A DNA stretch of 64,000 bases from an uncultured Flavobacteriales bacterium (GTDB taxonomy: Bacteria > Bacteroidota > Bacteroidia > Flavobacteriales_D > JABDKJ01): positions 16,394-80,393 of the forward strand of contig CAZSQZ010000009.1 of NCBI GenBank assembly GCA_964609215.1. The letters are read 5' to 3'. Below, in pieces: positions 11,742 to 41,140 of the stretch (position 1 is its first letter; the number at the start of each line of letters is the position of its first letter). The notes beneath the pieces are model-generated. The model was not told the origin of the DNA. It searched no databases and saw only the letters and a program-made list of their open reading frames with translations. Made by a program: the position numbers and the translations under genes.

Positions 11742-13343
11742 TTATTTAAAAGCAATTCTCTTCGTAATAATTGCATTATTATTGAACCTTAGTTCCGCAA
11801 CATACATTCCACTTGCTAAGGCATCTTTATCCATTTGGAAAACGTTATTTTCAATCTTAACGTGAGCTTTAACCAATCTTCCGTTCAGATCATATACATA
11901 AACATCTTGGATAGGATACTCGCTATTGGTCGTAAACGTGATTTGATCAACTCCAGGATTTGGACCTACTTGTAATCCAACAAGTGATTCTGCTAACTCC
12001 TCTACTCCAACTGTAATACCTGAACCTTGCAAATCGCATCCTAAATCCAGAGTAATACATGCTCTTGGTGCATAATATCCAATAATTGTATCAATAAAAG
12101 TTCTGGCTTTTTCAGGTGTCATATCTGGGTTAAGAAATATACCAGTGGCATGATTAACGTTAGTCGCTGGATCCCAAAAATCCCATGGAGATGAATCGAA
12201 TTCAGCACCAGCAGGACGTGTAATTGGCATTAAACCATTTACAGCCATACCTGGCAATTGTGCAGAAGAAGCAGGTAGAGCACCTTCTAATTCATCCGCT
12301 CTTAGAGAAAATGGATCCACGAAATCATGTTCATACCATTCCGCATTATTCCCAAATGAATCCTGAATTCTTTGTACATCATAAGAACCTGAAACTTCTA
12401 CTACAGGTTCGTTTGTTGTAGGTACGATTAGTGTCGCAGTCTCGTAAGGAGCAAAAGGATCAGTAGGTGTTTGAATAGAGATAATAGGAGCATCTCCTGG
12501 ATCAAGCCAAGTTGAATCTCCCATAGCACCTCCTACATTTACACAAAGTTGAAAACTAGAATCGAAGCCAACATGGTTGGGATAACATAAAGTGTCTCCA
12601 GGCGGAAAAGCAGGAAAACCAGGTGGAACCACACCGAATGATGTGCCAAAAATATCTCCATTCACATCCTCAAGAACCATAGGAATAAATCCACCCATTC
12701 CATCTGGAATAAAGAATTTATTTAAAAGAACTTCTTCATATGCATGAAGTGAATTTGCGGCCAAGGAAATATATCCCCCTGTACCTTGCCCAAAAAGAAC
12801 AATTTTATTTGGATCTATTCCATGCGGATTTCCAAGTTCAGCAACCGTTCTTTTAAAATATCTGACTGCAGTTCTCGCATCTTGGACTCCTCTATAAGCA
12901 GCATTTATTAATGTTGCGGTTCGTCCAATTTGGGTTGTGTCTAGAGGGTTCCATCCTAATCTGTAGTCAATGCTTGCCACAACGTATCCCATTCTGGCAA
13001 GGCGGCTGCAAATTTCAACTGCCGTTGAATCAGTTCTTGTACCCGATACACTTCCGTTTTGTGGATGAGGAAGGAAATTTCCTGTGTGAGCGTAGATAAC
13101 CAAAGGTCTTTCAGTTTCTGTATCTCCTGCTGGCATATATAAATCAGCAACTAAAGGTTCCGGAATTGCCTCACCAACAACCCCCAATAATAAAACGGTA
13201 GCATTTACTCCATAAATCTCTGTTGTAACAGGTTCAATATCAGTGAAAATTTCATCGATATATCTTTCCGTTTGAGCATTGAGATTCATTGAGAATGCAA
13301 AACATGCTAATAAGCATAGTGTAAAAATTCTTCTCATAATCAT
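11742..13343 (-). CDS. secreted alpha/beta-hydrolase-fold protein with T9SS C-terminal sorting domain
   Basis: Signal peptide. Esterase-like core (IYAHTGNF…, FGQGTGG at the elbow position). C-terminus VGPNPGVDQITF…GMYVAELRFNN is T9SS-CTD-like. Confidence 0.6.
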   Translation of the reverse strand: MIMRRIFTLCLLACFAFSMNLNAQTERYIDEIFTDIEPVTTEIYGVNATVLLLGVVGEAIPEPLVADLYMPAGDTETERPLVIYAHTGNFLPHPQNGSVSGTRTDSTAVEICSRLARMGYVVASIDYRLGWNPLDTTQIGRTATLINAAYRGVQDARTAVRYFKRTVAELGNPHGIDPNKIVLFGQGTGGYISLAANSLHAYEEVLLNKFFIPDGMGGFIPMVLEDVNGDIFGTSFGVVPPGFPAFPPGDTLCYPNHVGFDSSFQLCVNVGGAMGDSTWLDPGDAPIISIQTPTDPFAPYETATLIVPTTNEPVVEVSGSYDVQRIQDSFGNNAEWYEHDFVDPFSLRADELEGALPASSAQLPGMAVNGLMPITRPAGAEFDSSPWDFWDPATNVNHATGIFLNPDMTPEKARTFIDTIIGYYAPRACITLDLGCDLQGSGITVGVEELAESLVGLQVGPNPGVDQITFTTNSEYPIQDVYVYDLNGRLVKAHVKIENNVFQMDKDALASGMYVAELRFNNNAIITKRIAFK

Positions 13344-13375
13344 AGCTAATAAAAATTAATAAGTCCTAAATCTAG

Positions 13376-16201
13376 TTATTTTTTTCGGAGCTCATAAGAA
13401 ATAGAAAAATAGGCCAATCTGCCTATTCTTGGACCCCCATAAGTCTGAAATTGTCTATTGTTTAAAATATTTGTAGCACCTAATTTAAATGTGCTTTTCA
13501 ATTTTTTTGCTTTATAATTGACTTGTGCGTCCACCAAATCATAGGTTGGAATGAATCCTGTGAATTGTGGAGAGCCTTCAAAAAGAAAGCCTTCTATCCA
13601 TTTATAGTTTACATTGAAGCCAAAACTTTTTATTTCTTTATTGCCTATTTTCAGAGGGATATCTCTTCCACTAACTCCAATATTGTACTTGTGCTCTGGA
13701 GTATTAAAAGCTGGAATAATGGGATCATCATCAAAGGATTTGTTTAGCTTGTTCCAGGAATAATTACCATTGATACTATAATACTTTCTGAAATAGTAAT
13801 TCCAACCTATGGAAAATCCTTGGGTCGTAACTTGGTTTTCAGAATTGGCAGAGTACCGGAATACTTGAAGCTCATCAATTAAGGAAGTAACAGGATCTAG
13901 TTCTAAATCTATACCAATGTTAAAGCCCAGAAAGTCATCGTAGATACTGTAATAATAACCTGCGTCTAGATAAAGATTGTTATTAATAGTTGTTCGATAA
14001 CCCAACTCAAAAGTCTTAACTCTTTCCGGTTGAATAGGATCGATGCTAAAATATTCGAGATCATCTGAAAGCTGACTTCCCCTGAAGGCCTGAAAGGAAT
14101 CAAGTGTTACCAAACTATCCACACCATTTAGATTTCCAGATAAAATAGCTGGCCCAACATTTAGAAATTGGAATTGATCCGTTAAAGTAGGGTTCCTAAG
14201 TGCAGATGAGAAAGAGAAACGTATAAAGTTATTCGCTCTCGGCTTCCAGACAAAGGAAACTGCGGGAGTGAAAATTGCGTTAAAGTTCTCATTCTTATCC
14301 ATCCGTATTGTGGCATTCATAGTAACTCTATCATCAGCCAGCTTTTTCTCAATTCCTGAGTAAATTCCAAATTCTGAATTAGTAATTCGAATTCCTGCAG
14401 TATCAGAAAAGATGGTCCCATCTGATAATGGTCGATATATTCTTCCATTTGCTCCAACTGTCAATTCTTCTGTCCATTCTGGATTGAAAGTGTATTCCCC
14501 TTGAATATGAAATAGTTTAGATTTATCATAAAACATGGTTCCTCCTTCACGCTCATTATTCCTTAAGGAACGAATTCGATTAAACTCGGCCTGAAACTCT
14601 GGTGAACTTGGATCGAGAAGCACACTGTTTCCTGATCCAAAACCTGAGTTTACAGTGTCTGCTGTGATTGCATGAAATTGACTAAGAATATCTTGATTGT
14701 CAATTAACCATTGATTTGCAGCTGCAATTGAGTCAGGGTCAAAGAAAGAGATAAAATCAGGTGGAGGACCAATAATGAAATCGTCACTAAGATCAACATA
14801 GCCAGCATCCAACATCTGTGCGAAGATGTTATTCTTCCAGAAATTTGTGTAAGCACCTATCCAAGAACTCAATTCACCAGTTTGTTCTTGAAGCCTGAGT
14901 GCAGTTGCAAAGGGGTCATAGGATGAACCGGCATCTTCAGCCGTTATATAAGCCCGAACAAAATACTTATCCGTTTTCCGCAATTCTATTTTGTTCTGAA
15001 AAAATAAAATATCCTCCAATCTAAATCTGTTATCACCTTGATAAATGGTTGTTCCAGTTCCCACATTTCCTCCAACAATTAATTCCGGAGATTGCAATTC
15101 CATATCTGGCTTTAGTCTAAAATGGAATGCCAAGTTGGCTTTTAGATTTTCGGTGTCATAGTCAACAAGATCTATTTCTCTATACCCTGTTCGGTAAAAT
15201 CGACCTAAGCCAGCTTCATTCAAAACTGGAGATTCAGCAAAATTCGCAAAGGTTTCATCTCCATATATATTAACCGCATCAAAACCACCCGGATTTGATG
15301 CAGTAACTGGAGAGCCATCAACAGGATCGAAGTTTTCCGCTTCCCAATCATCGGCTGTTAAGTAGGAAATATTAAACTTATATGCCATAAACGGAAGCTC
15401 TTCATTATTATTAAAAACATCCGCCCAACGAACAGAAACTTCCGTTAAAGCTCTTTCACCTACTTTCAAACTTGCAGATAATCCTTCATGAAGAAATGGA
15501 CTTTTATTATCGATATTAATAACTCCGTTAAACGCATTTGGACCATAAAACGCAGAGCTTGCTCCAGAAATAATTTCTACTTTTTGTACATCTAGCTCGG
15601 GTGAACCTAGAAAATTTCCTAAAGAAAAATTTAATCCCGGAGCTTGATTATCCACTCCGTCAATAAGCTGCAGAGATCGAACAGGACTAGTGCTATTGAA
15701 GCCTCTGGTATTAATTACTTTAAATCCTAGACTAGCGGCAGTTAAGTCCACTCCTTTTAAATTTCCAAGTCCATCATAAAAATTATCTGCTGGTGTTTCC
15801 TTTATCGCAATCAAATCCATTGCTTCAACGGTTAATGGTCTAGATTTTTGTTTTTCTGAAATTCTTTGACCTACTATTTCAACTGATCCAATATCAATGG
15901 CTTCTGAATCTAGAAATATTTCAATCTTTTGATTTTCGCTAGTTACTTCAACCTCTTTGGTTAAATAACCTATAAACTGAACAACCAGAGTTAAAGGTAA
16001 ATCACCTTTAGTTTTAAATTGAAATGCACCATCAATATCTGTTACAGCGCCATTGGTAGTTCCTTTTTCTACAACTGTTGCTCCAATTAGTGATTCATCT
16101 AATGATTTATCTTTTACAACACCTTTAACAGTAGTTTGACCCAAAAGATTGGTACTGAGAAAAATAATAAAAGAACAAATAACACACACTTTTCCGTTCA
16201 T
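13376..16201 (-). CDS. TonB-dependent receptor with N-terminal carboxypeptidase-regulatory-like domain
   Basis: N-terminus VKGVVKD…GATV matches CarbopepD_reg. A plug region follows. Long beta-barrel with a C-terminal …YFSISYELRKK. Confidence 0.8.
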   Translation of the reverse strand: MNGKVCVICSFIIFLSTNLLGQTTVKGVVKDKSLDESLIGATVVEKGTTNGAVTDIDGAFQFKTKGDLPLTLVVQFIGYLTKEVEVTSENQKIEIFLDSEAIDIGSVEIVGQRISEKQKSRPLTVEAMDLIAIKETPADNFYDGLGNLKGVDLTAASLGFKVINTRGFNSTSPVRSLQLIDGVDNQAPGLNFSLGNFLGSPELDVQKVEIISGASSAFYGPNAFNGVINIDNKSPFLHEGLSASLKVGERALTEVSVRWADVFNNNEELPFMAYKFNISYLTADDWEAENFDPVDGSPVTASNPGGFDAVNIYGDETFANFAESPVLNEAGLGRFYRTGYREIDLVDYDTENLKANLAFHFRLKPDMELQSPELIVGGNVGTGTTIYQGDNRFRLEDILFFQNKIELRKTDKYFVRAYITAEDAGSSYDPFATALRLQEQTGELSSWIGAYTNFWKNNIFAQMLDAGYVDLSDDFIIGPPPDFISFFDPDSIAAANQWLIDNQDILSQFHAITADTVNSGFGSGNSVLLDPSSPEFQAEFNRIRSLRNNEREGGTMFYDKSKLFHIQGEYTFNPEWTEELTVGANGRIYRPLSDGTIFSDTAGIRITNSEFGIYSGIEKKLADDRVTMNATIRMDKNENFNAIFTPAVSFVWKPRANNFIRFSFSSALRNPTLTDQFQFLNVGPAILSGNLNGVDSLVTLDSFQAFRGSQLSDDLEYFSIDPIQPERVKTFELGYRTTINNNLYLDAGYYYSIYDDFLGFNIGIDLELDPVTSLIDELQVFRYSANSENQVTTQGFSIGWNYYFRKYYSINGNYSWNKLNKSFDDDPIIPAFNTPEHKYNIGVSGRDIPLKIGNKEIKSFGFNVNYKWIEGFLFEGSPQFTGFIPTYDLVDAQVNYKAKKLKSTFKLGATNILNNRQFQTYGGPRIGRLAYFSISYELRKK

Positions 16202-35317: not shown

Positions 35318-35455
35318 CGGAAAGAGTGGGAGTCGAACCCACACGAGTCGTTATCTCCGAACGGTTTTAACTCCATATAGCGAACTCAATTGGTGTCGTT
35401 GAGTTCGCTTTGCTCAGTTCAAGGTCGTGACCACCACCAATTGGCTTGTCTTTCC
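35318..35455 (-). ncRNA. 138-nt tRNA-like RNA: perfect acceptor and T arms, Ser(UGA)-type 5' half, ~65-nt non-tRNA core
   Basis: GGAAAGA/…/GTGGG-TTCGACT-CCCAC/TCTTTCC/G. The 5' part AGCC-AATTGGTGGT-GGT and ACGAC-CTTGAAC resembles a class II D arm plus the 5' half of an anticodon arm. Internal 9-bp hairpin AGCGAACTC-13 nt-GAGTTCGCT (35379-35409), whose loop CACCAATTG is complementary to the D-loop CAATTGGTG. Confidence 0.4.
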
Positions 35456-35467
35456 AAAATCTTTTTC

Positions 35468-35500
35468 AAAAAAAAAGCACCTCACGAGGAGGTGCTTTTT
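35468..35500. terminator. symmetric A-run/hairpin/T-run element 13 nt upstream of the first array member
   Basis: A9-GCACCTC-acgag-GAGGTGC-T5. It can act as a terminator in either direction. Confidence 0.55.
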
Positions 35501-35925
35501 AAATGTCTTGATCTATTTATTTCAATCTATTTTAAATGCTTCTCCCTATAGAATTTTTTGAATTCCGGATAGAATAATCGCAGCGAACTACATCCTTGTT
35601 CTTGGACTAAGTGGGCTTGGATTATATGTTCTAATGCAATTTTCATTGTGCTTTGTTTTGTGCGCTGCAAATATTTAAACTCTTTTTCAATTATACAAGA
35701 AAAAATTAATTTAAGTTACTGATAATCAAATGTTTACGATAAATTTTTGGACATAGAAATCCCGACTCGTATTTCTCGAATTTTCTTTTTTTTCGCAATT
35801 GCCTGTCTCTCAATTGATTCATTTTTTCTATTCTATTTCAACCTTATTTTAATTTATTCATTAATTATTTTTTTCAGTGTTTTTCAATTTCATTTATTCA
35901 AGCTCTTGTTATAGAGTTTGGGACA

Positions 35926-35959
35926 TAAAAAAAGCCCGAACATTTTTAGGTTTCGGGCT
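35926..35959 (-). terminator. rho-independent terminator of the rtcB-NTase operon
   Basis: Minus strand: AGCCCGAA-11 nt-TTCGGGCT followed by T7. Confidence 0.6.
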
Positions 35960-36136
35960 TTAACAATTCAAAATATTTTATTTCTAATGCATAAAAAGCC
36001 AAAACCGATTAAGACTGAAACGCGGTTCAGATATAGATGATATTAATATATATTGTTGCTTATGCATTTGTATTCTTTCTTTGCGTCTCAAAAATATTCG
36101 TGTTTTTTTGAAACGTGCCCTATAGACGTTAGAAAT

Positions 36137-37207
36137 TTATTTTGGTTGTCTAACCCGAGCATAAAATTCAGTTCTTAAGTTTCTGAGAAGCAAGTCTATT
36201 TGGTTTTTATCAGGTGAATCTTTTAAATTGGAGAACTTAAATAATAAATCAAGTTCCTGCCTTAATTTTTCTGCTTCTTTTAGAAGATATTCATACTCGA
36301 ATTCCCCATTTTTAATTGAAAGTAAAAAATCTCGATCTTTTCTTTTTACATTAATTCTTCCTTCTAGTGCTATTTCTTTGGCCATCTTGAGAAGCCTGAA
36401 TGTATGCATAATGTTTTTCGAGTCATAGTTTTTTCCATGTTTCACAGTTGTATTGTATCTCTCTTCATTTCTATTTTCCACCCAAGCCCAATATTCTTTA
36501 TGTCTCTTACAATAGGTGGAATAGCCATCTAGATTGAAAAAGAGCATGGTAAGGGCCTTTTCTCCTTTGGGTATTGAACTTAATGCAATTTCATTGGCAT
36601 TAGAGCTATTTATAATTCCTTTGTGTTGAATTGATTTGCTGTGAAAAAGACTATAACAGTCTTTCATGTTGGCTAATTTAACAAGACCACAATCTTCTTG
36701 TCGAATATTATTGTCTTTTAAGTATCGGCTAAGAGGAACTGATTTATTATGATCTAAAACAAAGCAAAAATCAAGAACTCCTTTTTTGACTTTTGACATT
36801 GGATTAACAATTTTCTTCTCAAGTCCTCTAGCTTTTTTAATCTGAGTAAATACATAGTTAGAAAATGTTTCCTTGCAACGCTTGCTCAAGAATAGATCTG
36901 TTTTCACCTTACCAAAAATGGGGTCTTTGTGCAATATGCAACCCTCCGGAACAGACAGGAGCTCAATTATATTGGGGTTATTATTAAGGCATAATTTCAG
37001 GAACTTTCTGATTTCATAATAAACAATGTCATTGCTTGGATTATTAATTTGTTCTGTATAATCGAAAGAATACAATTGCTTTTCTGGAAGAATATATACC
37101 CCTCTAATATCCGTGTCCGAATTTGGAGTAGCTAAACCATAAGCTCTACTTCCACTGATGCACTCAAAAATGATGTGACCTGATTCTTTTAATTCCTCAA
37201 GAGTCAT
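36137..37207 (-). CDS. Pol-beta superfamily nucleotidyltransferase (RlaP-like / YcgL family), long form
   Basis: N-terminus SGSRAYGLATPNSDTDIRGV matches G-S-x(10)-D-x-D. A 4-nt overlap with the upstream paralogue. Confidence 0.7.
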   Translation of the reverse strand: MTLEELKESGHIIFECISGSRAYGLATPNSDTDIRGVYILPEKQLYSFDYTEQINNPSNDIVYYEIRKFLKLCLNNNPNIIELLSVPEGCILHKDPIFGKVKTDLFLSKRCKETFSNYVFTQIKKARGLEKKIVNPMSKVKKGVLDFCFVLDHNKSVPLSRYLKDNNIRQEDCGLVKLANMKDCYSLFHSKSIQHKGIINSSNANEIALSSIPKGEKALTMLFFNLDGYSTYCKRHKEYWAWVENRNEERYNTTVKHGKNYDSKNIMHTFRLLKMAKEIALEGRINVKRKDRDFLLSIKNGEFEYEYLLKEAEKLRQELDLLFKFSNLKDSPDKNQIDLLLRNLRTEFYARVRQPK

Positions 37208-37950
37208 GTCAGTTCATTTATAAAAAACTCATTGAATGCAGTTGGATTCAATCTTACTTTTTTCAATGAATCCTTTTTCGATTCGTTTTCAAGTACAATT
37301 GTTTTAGCCATATTTAGCAAGTCTGTATTTATAGCAACAATTCCAGCTTCAGCAGTCGAAGCCTTTAACTGAACTAAATCGAGTAAAAGTCTTGATTCAT
37401 GATCTGAAATCAATTCAAAAAGCTCGGTAAATGAAACTGGAGGGATGGTCTTATTTTTTAAAATCCAATTGGCACATAATGCAGTTCTTATGGCGTAGAA
37501 GAATTCTTTAATAGTAAATTTTCCTTCTTTCAATTTCTCATGAAATCCTTTGTTCATACTGTGAAAATGATAGAATCCAGAAACAGGATTGAAATTTTCT
37601 TTTGCAAGAGTTCGCATATTTTCGAGTGTTTCCCTGTGAGAAAAATAGACGATTGGAGAAAATAGCCAACCTAGAAACGAAGCATTGGACTTGGCCAAAA
37701 GTTTGGAGGCTTTTTGCAAATCCCATCCAACTCCATCCAAGTCTTCTTCCGTCATAAATTGAATTGTATCATCTTCTTCCCATAGACTTAAGTATTTACG
37801 AAAGTCCTTTTTGTAAACGAAACGAACGTCATAATCTGAATCGGGAGACTCAAAACCCCAGGCCCTACTTCCAGATTCAACAGCAAAAAGAATATCTACT
37901 TCCTTCGTTTTTTCTATTTCTTTGAGTTTATTTATTATTAAGTCTTTCAT
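37204..37950 (-). CDS. Pol-beta superfamily nucleotidyltransferase (RlaP-like / YcgL family), short form
   Basis: N-terminus SGSRAWGFESPDSDYDVRFV. Paralogue of the downstream gene. Confidence 0.7.
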   Translation of the reverse strand: MKDLIINKLKEIEKTKEVDILFAVESGSRAWGFESPDSDYDVRFVYKKDFRKYLSLWEEDDTIQFMTEEDLDGVGWDLQKASKLLAKSNASFLGWLFSPIVYFSHRETLENMRTLAKENFNPVSGFYHFHSMNKGFHEKLKEGKFTIKEFFYAIRTALCANWILKNKTIPPVSFTELFELISDHESRLLLDLVQLKASTAEAGIVAINTDLLNMAKTIVLENESKKDSLKKVRLNPTAFNEFFINELT

Positions 37951-37961
37951 TTTTTTTCAAT

Positions 37962-38639
37962 TTAACAGCTTTGTTCTAGTATGGTGTATGCAATAGAGAT
38001 TTTGTTAGCTTCATCTTCATTGACTTTTTCAAAATAAAGTTTCATCAAATTACTTTTCATTTTGTCTGAAGAAAGCCAATTCTGAAACACATTCTGTTGT
38101 TGTTCATTTAATCCCAAATCCGCGGGATATAAAACATATTCAACAAGTGGTTGAAATGATTCTTTATTGCGTGCTTCTTCCCAAATAATCAAAGCAGTTT
38201 CGAGATCATAATACATATGCATTATTTGAAATGCTTCCGAAATTGTTGAACTATTGAGTCTTATATTCTCTTTCCAAAGTTCTAGAAAGAATTGTTTTAT
38301 AGAGTGAATTTCTTTTGATTCCCAATTCTCCCATTTACAATAATTTAATTTTTCAAAAGTCAGAAAATCATCAATCAGGTTATATTCTTGGTCTTGAAAC
38401 AATTCTAAAATTCTGGGTAAAAAGTGCTTAAAGTCTTTTTCGTCTCCAAAAGTCGTAACCGCAGACCTAGTAAATTGACCCATGACTTTTATTGATAATT
38501 CTCTCAATGGGCCAGAAGTTAATTCGCTAATTTCTTTATCTGTAACACAACATTCACAGGACCTATCCCTCAGTCCATTTGCTAAGGGATAGGCATTGAA
38601 TACATCATACAATTGCTCTATTGCAGTTTCTAAATTCAT
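37962..38639 (-). CDS. hypothetical alpha-helical protein, translationally coupled to rtcB
   Basis: The ATG at 38639 lies 1 nt after the rtcB stop (38641-43); the ORF-track start 38696 overlaps rtcB. Contains a CECC cluster. No motif recognised. Confidence 0.5.
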   Translation of the reverse strand: MNLETAIEQLYDVFNAYPLANGLRDRSCECCVTDKEISELTSGPLRELSIKVMGQFTRSAVTTFGDEKDFKHFLPRILELFQDQEYNLIDDFLTFEKLNYCKWENWESKEIHSIKQFFLELWKENIRLNSSTISEAFQIMHMYYDLETALIIWEEARNKESFQPLVEYVLYPADLGLNEQQQNVFQNWLSSDKMKSNLMKLYFEKVNEDEANKISIAYTILEQSC

Positions 38640-38640
38640 C

Positions 38641-40047
<1,407 letters not shown>

Positions 40048-40084: not shown

Positions 40085-40111
40085 GATAATTTGAAAGCTT
40101 TAATTTTGTAT

Positions 40112-41140
40112 ATGGCTCAAAATAAAAACGCTCTGATAAGATATAAAACCATTGATAAATGTCTTCAAAATCAATATAGAAAATGGACTTTGGAGGATTT
40201 AATTGATGCTTGTTCAGATGCATTGAACGAATATGAAGGACGAGATATAAATGTAAGCAAACGAACTGTTCAGCTTGATATTCAGTTAATGAGGAGTGAT
40301 AAACTTGGATATAATGCACCCATTATTGCTTATGAACGCAAATATTATCGTTATGAAGATGAGAATTATTCAATCACGAATATTCCTCTTACAGAAAATG
40401 ATATGAGTGTATTGACAGAGACGGTTGAAATGTTGAAACAGTTCAAAGATTTTTCATTGTTTTCTGAGTTGGGTGGTATTATTCATCGTCTAGAGGACAA
40501 AATTCACACGGAGAAAACTCAAAACTCTTCAGTCATTCATTTAGAAAAGAATGAGAATCTAAAAGGCTTGGAGCATTTAGATTTGCTTTATCAAGCGATT
40601 CTAAAAAAGATTTGTTTGACATTGGATTATCAATCCTTCAAGGCTAAGTCATCGAGTAGAATCGTTTTTCATCCATTTATTTTGAAAGAGTTTAACAATC
40701 GCTGGTTCGTGGTTGGAAGAAAAGGGAAGAGTAGTCCCATCATTACTTTTGCCTTAGATAGAATAATAGCTATTGACTATAATTTAGACATTCCATATTT
40801 AAACGAAGACTTTGATAGAGATGAGTATTACAAAAACACAATTGGTGTAACCGTACTTAACGAAACGCAGCTGAGAGAAGTTGATTTGAAAATTGACAAA
40901 TACAATGCACCTTATGTTTTGACCAAGCCCTTTCACCAATCGCAAGAGGTAATAGAAACAGATAGATATGGAAACGTAACGGTCAGAATCAAAGTTCATT
41001 TGAATTTCGAATTGGAACGTCTCATACTAGGTTTTGGAGATTCAATTCAAGTTCTTAAACCTAGACAATTGAAGAATAGAATAAGAAGGAAATTAAAAAA
41101 TGCGATTGAGAATTATGAGAAGGCTAAGGAACCTCATTAA
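40112..41140 (+). CDS. WYL-domain transcriptional regulator (HTH-WYL-WCX architecture)
   Basis: N-terminal wHTH (NALIRYKTIDKCLQN…WTLEDLIDAC). Central WYL-type segment (…HPFILKEFNNRWFVVGRKG…). C-terminus …GDSIQVLKPRQLKNRI. I use ATG 40112; the ORF track uses TTG 40091. Confidence 0.75.
   Translation: MAQNKNALIRYKTIDKCLQNQYRKWTLEDLIDACSDALNEYEGRDINVSKRTVQLDIQLMRSDKLGYNAPIIAYERKYYRYEDENYSITNIPLTENDMSVLTETVEMLKQFKDFSLFSELGGIIHRLEDKIHTEKTQNSSVIHLEKNENLKGLEHLDLLYQAILKKICLTLDYQSFKAKSSSRIVFHPFILKEFNNRWFVVGRKGKSSPIITFALDRIIAIDYNLDIPYLNEDFDRDEYYKNTIGVTVLNETQLREVDLKIDKYNAPYVLTKPFHQSQEVIETDRYGNVTVRIKVHLNFELERLILGFGDSIQVLKPRQLKNRIRRKLKNAIENYEKAKEPH

Follow-up and report, generated by a model that had tools for sequence, protein, structure and literature searches.

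RlaP proteins, which according to papers citing Burroughs & Aravind 2016 owe their name to an association with RNA ligases, are nucleotidyltransferases (NTases) whose chemistry has been described for two Pseudomonas members, PfRlaP of P. fluorescens and PaRlaP of P. aeruginosa (Carruthers, Fatma & Huang, bioRxiv Dec 2025, PMC12776372). Here we describe two overlapping genes encoding a short and a long RlaP, RlaP-S and RlaP-L (S and L below), in a stretch of 64,000 nucleotides (nt) from an uncultured Flavobacteriales bacterium (contig CAZSQZ010000009.1, positions 16,394 to 80,393). This stretch is called the window; its contig was assembled from a metagenome (JGI sample 3300002927) and has its closest relatives among Flavobacteriales. 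The RlaP family, its chemistry and its linkage to RtcB, Band-7 proteins and tRNA-like RNAs are already known. The two Pseudomonas enzymes add one or two nucleoside monophosphates (NMPs) to an RNA 3'-OH; they accept RNA and not DNA or protein, work best with Mn2+, show little specificity for the nucleoside triphosphate (NTP) and need no template (PMC12776372). With a tRNA mimic cleaved in its anticodon loop they prefer the 5' half, the acceptor-end fragment being a poorer substrate once annealed, and RlaP treatment before ligation partly restores the aminoacylation of a tRNA that lacks one nucleotide (PMC12776372).

The locus in the window resembles the Pseudomonas rtcB-rlaP-rtcA operons in its PF10127 proteins, in its RtcB operon and apparently in the order of a Polβ core followed by a helical domain. 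In the crystal structure of PfRlaP the C-terminal helical domain and the NTase domain form a cleft. RlaP-S has the canonical architecture, matching the whole family profile, and the addition of one or two NMPs is presumed for the window proteins by analogy. Compared with PfRlaP and PaRlaP by description and family profile, RlaP-L adds a β-rich insert and a C-terminal region that cannot be aligned with the canonical form, the regulator is a WYL-WCX protein and not RtcR, and no RtcA was found among the proteins scanned in the island of RNA-repair genes around the pair. The RtcB/Band-7/'b7a-tRNA' and RlaP-containing systems (Burroughs & Aravind, NAR 2016), as citing papers present them, share with the window RtcB, an RlaP-type NTase, Band-7 and tRNA-like elements beside Band-7; to these the window adds a full array of eight tRNA genes and an Rnl-type ligase. 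Long tRNA arrays co-regulated with rtcB have been described in cyanobacteria, and long arrays occur in Bacteroidetes too (Santamaría-Gómez et al., NAR 2021, PMC8421152). The window has in common with the cyanobacterial arrays the linkage of a long array to RtcB and other RNA-processing genes. In cyanobacteria regulation operates through direct promoter repeats, whereas in the window no motif was found to be common to the RtcB/WYL intergenic region and the sequence ahead of the array. The text of PMC8421152 mentions no nucleotidyltransferase and no WYL protein and draws no link between arrays and RlaP pairs.

Sequence and domain organisation of RlaP-S and RlaP-L

RlaP-S matches PF10127, whose gathering cutoff is 23 bits, with 206.7 bits (E 6e-61) over profile positions 1-247 of 249, and phrog_14344 with E 9e-57. 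The match of RlaP-L to PF10127 (90.3 bits, E 2e-25) is confined to residues 9-126, its N-terminal 118 residues, while phrog_388 matches it over the full length (E 7e-49). The shared Polβ motif reads GSRAWGFESPDSDYDVRF in RlaP-S and GSRAYGLATPNSDTDIRG in RlaP-L, and pairwise BLASTP aligns the two proteins with 29% identity over 90 aa (E 6e-9). When about 80 S orthologues were aligned with about 80 L orthologues by hhalign, residues 9-94 of L paired with residues 17-103 of S alone (probability 97.7%), and nothing C-terminal to the NTase core aligned in this profile-profile comparison. On these alignments S and L are deep paralogues. The 4-nt ATGA overlap that joins the RlaP-S stop to the RlaP-L start leads us to infer that the two are translationally coupled. 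A sequence-only reading of the window had described tandem, overlapping open reading frames (ORFs) of 248 and 356 aa with a common Pol-beta active-site block, lying downstream of RtcB and encoding RlaP-like NTases in an RNA-repair context; each of these points is borne out here, with both proteins over the PF10127 threshold and with a 244-aa ORF standing between RtcB and the pair. Both proteins have the profile match and the Polβ signature of the family, and RNA ligases are associated with them at this locus.

The catalytic residues of RlaP-S (G27-S28, D37/D39 together with D41, and D72) are kept in at least 95% of 79 orthologues, and those of RlaP-L (G19-S20, D31/D33 and D60/E65) are conserved to at least 95% in about 80 orthologues. 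Because the G-S motif, the DxD pair and the third carboxylate are kept in both families, both proteins are predicted to be active enzymes. The AlphaFold model of RlaP-L (pLDDT 77.5) divides into three parts: the NTase domain, then a β-rich insert and, at the C-terminus, a bundle of helices. S spans the whole RlaP profile, whereas the bundle in the L model comes after the extra insert and the C-terminal part of L cannot be aligned with S. Across loci the mean pairwise identity is 66% for L and 53% for S, with the S values bimodal and forming two lineages; judged by these identities, L is the more constrained of the two.

Some L-type homologues, P0159 and P0212 among them, are about 700 aa in length and contain a match to a LAGLIDADG homing-endonuclease domain, as would be expected of an intein. 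In P0159 the insertion, of about 340 aa, falls between D262 and S263, within the invariant KNYD-SKN-MH motif of the helical domain. Inteins tend towards functionally critical sites, and because the putative intein sits inside it, this motif is probably critical in L-type proteins. We also considered a zinc site in L, since six cysteines are invariant in Bacteroidota, yet P0159, which is 44% identical, retains only C148 and C233; a four-cysteine metal site is therefore unlikely on the alignment. A search of PDB sequences with RlaP-S gave no match, and a match of RlaP-L residues 179-270 to HIV/SIV gp120 (E ~1e-3), which has neither structural nor contextual support, was set aside as chance.

Conservation of the S-then-L unit

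Related loci were collected by scanning an alignment of L over one genome per GTDB species. This detected 522 relatives, of which 80 loci were examined, all from Bacteroidota (Flavobacteriales, Chitinophagales and Sphingobacteriales) except one contig labelled cyanobacterial. In all 80, L is preceded on its strand by an S-type gene; the gap between them is 1 nt or less in 58, and the ATGA overlap of -4 recurs in 38. This arrangement is far beyond chance. RtcB is less regularly placed: within 3 kb of the pair it lies upstream in 29 loci and downstream in 36, seven loci being counted on both sides, and 22 loci have none within that distance. Within 10 kb, any RtcB is found in 65 of the 80 loci and a close orthologue of the window RtcB in 53. 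No detectable homologue of the window's PF09414 ligase was found in any of the 80.

The pair also occurs as a cassette in very different surroundings. In the chromosome of Proteus mirabilis it directly follows guaB-guaA, and the 8 kb to either side contain neither a ligase nor a tRNA, showing that the association with RNA ligases is not universal. Further cassettes lie on a Hymenobacter plasmid, with no tRNA near the pair, and in a contig of mostly unannotated small ORFs whose L is 33% identical to the window protein. A search covering 1.84 billion representative proteins yielded a natural S-L fusion of 619 aa, P0126, in which residues 7-252 form a complete S-type RlaP and residues 270-617 an L-type RlaP, with the S-then-L order kept and both catalytic motifs intact. 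An assembly error is unlikely, as the gene recurs unchanged in four assemblies that derive from four sequencing runs. No RNA ligase lies near the fusion, and the genes called around it include no array. The S-then-L pair is therefore a conserved unit that is kept across phyla while its other neighbours vary.

Two side observations concern the wider loci. In 33 of the 80 loci (for example L006 at 12378-13703, L015 and L019) a distant second paralogue of RtcB, with 27-31% identity to the window protein, is found no more than 10 kb from the pair, often in addition to the close orthologue. Cultivable carriers of the pair include Kordia algicida OT-1, Flavobacterium suaedae and a Tenacibaculum species. 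In Kordia algicida OT-1 (L003 / L010) the pair stands within a much larger RNA-repair island that comprises a WYL regulator, two RNase T-like exonucleases, an Rnl1-like ligase, a PNKP-like kinase/phosphatase, an R2K ATP-grasp protein, DUF434/DUF5616, a 419-aa S-type RlaP, an extra 329-aa gene between S and L, an Rnl2-like ligase and 17 tRNA genes.

Possible functions of the pair

On balance we lean towards the view that S-L is a conserved, translationally coupled two-gene module of RNA 3'-end NTases which cooperate to restore nucleotides before ligation. Both proteins belong to the family, both have intact catalytic motifs, and S is followed by L across phyla, in the fusion as well. From the biochemistry of other family members, each protein should add one or two NMPs to an RNA 3'-OH with Mn2+; we infer that the two cooperate, whether in a complex or one after the other, and that their substrate is tRNA. 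The pair would be co-transcribed with the divergent RtcB, probably under the control of the divergently encoded WYL-WCX regulator, and S and L together would act on RNA, most likely tRNA, that has been cut and trimmed by a ribonuclease. The module would restore the lost nucleotides ahead of ligation, and a ligase would then close the break. The ATP-dependent Rnl-type ligase of the island would fit this step directly: ligases of the PF09414 class join a 3'-OH to a 5'-phosphate (5'-P) (PMC12776372) and are compatible with RlaP products. RtcB would need further end conversion.

Several observations weigh against this view. Among the best 80 L-type loci in IMG/VR, 70 have no S-type gene within 5 kb, and L-type genes are solitary in annotated phages of Vequintavirinae and Asteriusvirus such as BIS47 and 121Q. 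The S-type genes come from another set of phages (80 records listed), mostly Pseudomonas phages such as phiKZ. Since both types thus occur solitary and in different phages, each enzyme can work alone. The pairwise identities of S and L across loci do correlate (r = 0.60), but this is expected of any two genes inherited together. For the Pseudomonas operons one RlaP is described, placed between rtcB and rtcA, whereas the window has two paralogues in fixed order. The preprint itself raises the difficulty that the 3'-OH of the RlaP product cannot be joined by RtcB (PMC12776372). Nor was a polynucleotide kinase recognised in this island that would supply the 5'-P needed by the Rnl-type ligase. Lastly, the role of S-L need not be tied to break repair, because no ligase lies near the Proteus pair or the fusion.

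The solitary viral genes bear on the proposal of the sequence-only reading that the overlapping genes encode a heteromeric pair. That the two work together gains strong, if indirect, support from the invariant S-L order, the stand-alone cassette of Proteus and the fusion. A physical S-L heteromer is possible, and we would put it somewhat short of an even chance. An obligate one is unlikely because the viral L form is usually solitary, and we read the cellular coupling of S and L as cooperation or complementary specificity rather than as an obligate complex.

S and L could also be two independent RlaPs with different substrates or nucleotide preferences, for example anticodon-loop breaks for one and some other RNA end for its neighbour, which stand side by side for co-expression only and neither form a complex nor hand over a substrate. 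The part common to both is the NTase core, their substrate-facing C-terminal parts being unrelated at profile level, and each is solitary in its own phage groups. The bimodal and faster divergence of S also suggests different constraints. We nevertheless consider independent enzymes unlikely: the S-L order is invariant where every other neighbour varies, and a stand-alone cassette in another phylum and an in-order fusion exceed what co-regulation normally preserves.

At the opposite end, S-L might be a machine with two active sites, a heterodimer or a strict relay, that rebuilds a defined gap of one or two nucleotides left by cut-and-trim ribotoxins with a specificity beyond that of a single RlaP. 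We regard this as rather improbable. Split CC-adding and A-adding enzymes, for example those of Aquifex aeolicus, are two Polβ-superfamily paralogues of the class II CCA-adding family that divide template-independent, multi-nucleotide 3'-end addition between them. They offer a useful model of how S and L might share work, although S and L match no Pfam CCA-adding family. In such a machine the insert domain peculiar to L would recognise the damaged tRNA, and in a bolder variant L would carry out the step, so far missing, by which RlaP products become fit for ligation by RtcB.

The sequence-only reading had connected the pair with the adjacent tRNA array, arguing that array tRNAs without an encoded CCA might be substrates of template-independent 3'-end repair or tagging. 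Its general idea of template-independent 3'-end repair agrees with the published chemistry of the two Pseudomonas RlaPs (PMC12776372), and CCA is indeed encoded in none of the eight array tRNAs of the window. Arrays (4-20 genes) lie within 10 kb of the pair in 43 of the 80 related loci (39 of the 67 full-length loci), and all 47 arrays are on the strand of the pair. The missing CCA itself turned out to carry no such message. Isolated tRNA genes of the same 80 loci lack an encoded CCA in 48 of 52 cases and array tRNA genes in 466 of 484; because isolated genes in the same genomes also lack it, the missing CCA is a trait of the phylum and not of the array. There is no array near the pair in 37 of the 80 loci, in Proteus or on the Hymenobacter plasmid, nor among the genes called around the fusion. 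In phage BIS47 a gene for a CCA-adding enzyme (annotated 'tRNA nucleotidyltransferase') stands apart from the solitary L-type gene, at a distance of 2 kb, which argues that L is no replacement for such an enzyme. The characterised RlaPs add no more than one or two nucleotides with little NTP specificity and act more weakly on the annealed acceptor-end fragment (PMC12776372). An identity as CCA-adding enzyme or poly(A) polymerase was rejected for both proteins, for which Pfam gives RlaP, a weak generic Polbeta match and two unrelated families below cutoff. That the pair rebuilds or tags the acceptor 3' end of array RNAs is thus very unlikely.

Equally little speaks for a role of the pair outside RNA repair, in making a signalling oligonucleotide in the manner of Hailong HalB or in nucleotidylylating small molecules or proteins as ANT and MNT enzymes do, and we think it slightly less probable still. 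RlaP-S has a weak match to the MntA model, and no RNA ligase lies near the pair in Proteus or in the fusion organism. The MntA match, however, reaches only 26.3 bits against a cutoff of 60 and RlaP-L has none, no HEPN toxin or channel gene stands beside the pair, and PADLOC gave no match for either protein, so that an identity as MNT antitoxin of a type VII (MNT-HEPN) system was rejected. The sequence-only reading had left room for antibiotic NTases as well as MNT families, and the profile searches found neither; membership in the antibiotic families (ANT(4')/KNTase, ANT(3'')(9), Lnu) was likewise rejected. A HalB-type oligonucleotide synthase was discarded for want of HalB homology and of an adjacent HalA channel gene. 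Hailong HalB (PDB 9dbh) and the ANT/KNTase enzymes share 10-17% identity with the window proteins, a likeness generic to the minimal fold of NTase plus helical domain, and differ in having no hidden Markov model match, no partner genes in common and another genomic context. In contrast, the PF10127 match is strong, the tested relatives used RNA and not DNA or protein (PMC12776372), and RtcB is a frequent neighbour within 10 kb.

That one partner is a catalytically dead pseudo-enzyme which only binds RNA or regulates the other is scarcely credible, for nothing suggests it except that the two differ in length and that Pfam covers L only in part, while the GS motif, the DxD and the third acidic residue are kept in about 80 orthologues of each and in both halves of the fusion, and solitary L-type and S-type genes persist in phages.

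Homologues in phages

The phage NTases of phrog_388, such as Klebsiella phage BIS47 gp147 and Escherichia phage 121Q gp506, resemble RlaP-L over its full length, the insert included; they differ in being solitary, with no S-type gene nearby, and are 27-38% identical to RlaP-L. Homologues of phrog_388 occur in large phages, jumbo phages included, and a review of jumbo phages lists RlaP with RNA ligases and CCA-adding enzymes in phage RNA repair. L-type matches include the Lak megaphage as well; neighbours were inspected for the annotated phages (Vequintavirinae, Asteriusvirus). Ten viral contigs of the IMG/VR set do have an adjacent S (L101, L105-L109 and L114-L117). Nine of them are predicted viral regions, about 40-43 kb long, with taxon numbers in the style of isolate genomes in their IMG/VR names; in each of the nine, only a few bases separate L from the end of the contig. 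They may be prophage-boundary calls rather than true phage genes.

Genomic context of the pair

The positions of the pair and of the surrounding features are given in Table 1. The operon reads RtcB, the 244-aa ORF, RlaP-S and RlaP-L on the minus strand, with the pair at its 3' end; its successive junctions are an overlap, an 11-nt gap and the 4-nt overlap, and a scan for hairpins and terminators between the four genes found no convincing terminator. The window RtcB falls far under the cutoff of all NCBIfam RtcB models (for example 76 bits against 407), and its N-terminal residues, about 180, lie outside the Pfam RtcB match. The 244-aa protein has no match in Pfam, NCBIfam, PADLOC, PHROGs or PDB sequences, and no Walker A motif was seen in it by eye. 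The WYL-WCX protein is presumed to regulate the RtcB/S/L operon. Promoter-like sites were no more frequent than in shuffled sequences, and a search for an operator shared by the RtcB/WYL intergenic region, the sequence preceding the tRNA array and the gap between the Rnl-type ligase and Band-7 yielded AT-rich 9-10-mers only. The GC content is 33-39% over 24-48 kb, so the island is not distinct and gives no signal of horizontal transfer.

Table 1. Features of the RlaP locus, with positions counted from the first nucleotide of the window.
Feature	Position	Strand	Basis or remarks
RlaP-S, canonical short RlaP nucleotidyltransferase, 248 aa	37204..37950	-	PF10127, phrog_14344
RlaP-L, long RlaP paralogue, 356 aa	36137..37207	-	PF10127 (N-terminal part), phrog_388
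ATGA overlap of RlaP-S stop and RlaP-L start, 4 nt	37204..37207	-	Read from sequence: ...CTG ACA TGA / ATG ACT...
Polβ NTase core of RlaP-L (residues 9-126), sole part homologous to RlaP-S	36830..37183	-	hhalign and Pfam coverage
β-rich insert domain, L type only (~residues 140-225)	36533..36790	-	AlphaFold model
C-terminal helical bundle of RlaP-L with invariant KNYD-KN-MH motif	36152..36532	-	AlphaFold model
Divergent RtcB RNA ligase, first operon gene	38641..40026	-	PF01139 E 1.6e-35, residues 185-441
Unknown 244-aa ORF, accessory, between RtcB and RlaP-S	37962..38696	-	Found in 11/80 related loci
WYL-WCX regulator, divergently transcribed	40091..41140	+	PF13280, PF25583; orthologue in 49/80 loci
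Terminator-like hairpin ~180 nt past RlaP-L; 9-bp stem, 11-nt loop, T run	35927..35960	-	Read by eye
Array of 8 tRNA genes, downstream, same strand as the pair	34243..35192	-	ARAGORN, Rfam
ATP-dependent RNA ligase (Rnl-type)	33578..34270 (public gene call starts 34216)	-	PF09414 E 1.3e-17; phrog_548 E 3e-25
Band-7/SPFH protein, known partner in RtcB systems	31451..32551	-	PF01145; present in 24/80 loci

Downstream of the pair, a 39-codon ORF, MKIALEHIIQAHLVQEQGCSSLRLFYPEFKKFYREKHLK (35527-35646, minus strand), lies between the terminator-like hairpin of Table 1 and a second one at 35468-35495, all read by eye; the second hairpin and the ORF stand just upstream of the tRNA array. The automatic scan, which admits loops of 8 nt or less, listed neither hairpin, and the loop of the one at 35927-35960 exceeds its limit. 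The Rnl-type ligase follows 1.9 kb downstream of the pair. In the 1-kb gap between this ligase and Band-7, the segment 32866-33013 (minus strand) has a weak match to YrlA (Y RNA-like; 28.6 bits, E 0.004) and a weak tRNA match (24.5 bits), and three GGTTCGA-type T-arm motifs lie near 33215, 32990 and 32880. Such tRNA-like elements beside Band-7 fit the predicted 'band-7-associated tRNA' (bioRxiv 10.1101/312249).

Additional T-loop-bearing segments that ARAGORN does not call are present in or just upstream of the array (35197-35311, 35322-35412 and 34880-34975, minus strand). One of them has a closing stem of 7-9 bp and four internal hairpins and resembles a class II tRNA with an extra hairpin. 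The folding z-scores of these segments, -0.15 to -3.45, did not suffice for calling them new tRNA-like genes. In some related arrays ARAGORN reports odd tRNAs that are 94-99 nt long or undetermined.

Significance

Profile comparisons place RlaP-L in a separate subfamily with a full-length phage counterpart, phrog_388. A search of the literature outside Burroughs & Aravind 2016 found no description of the fixed S-then-L module and the S-L fusion, of L as a subfamily marked by its insert domain and matched over its full length in phages, or of the strong linkage between S-L and tRNA arrays in Bacteroidota; in the text of the RlaP preprint the words tandem, paralog and dimer are all absent (PMC12776372).

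That preprint leaves two problems open. A single RlaP is nearly unselective, so that most repaired tRNAs would be wrong, and its product is unusable by RtcB, the ligase most frequently encoded as its partner (PMC12776372). A widely conserved and sometimes fused pair of a canonical and a structurally distinct, long RlaP is an obvious place to seek the missing specificity or the missing step. Were the pair to consist of two redundant enzymes, the finding would be routine annotation; were it to supply a specificity or an RtcB compatibility absent from single RlaPs, the finding would gain weight. For the Bacteroidota, the linkage of S-L to tRNA arrays would give these arrays a concrete enzymatic partner as part of a response to tRNA damage.

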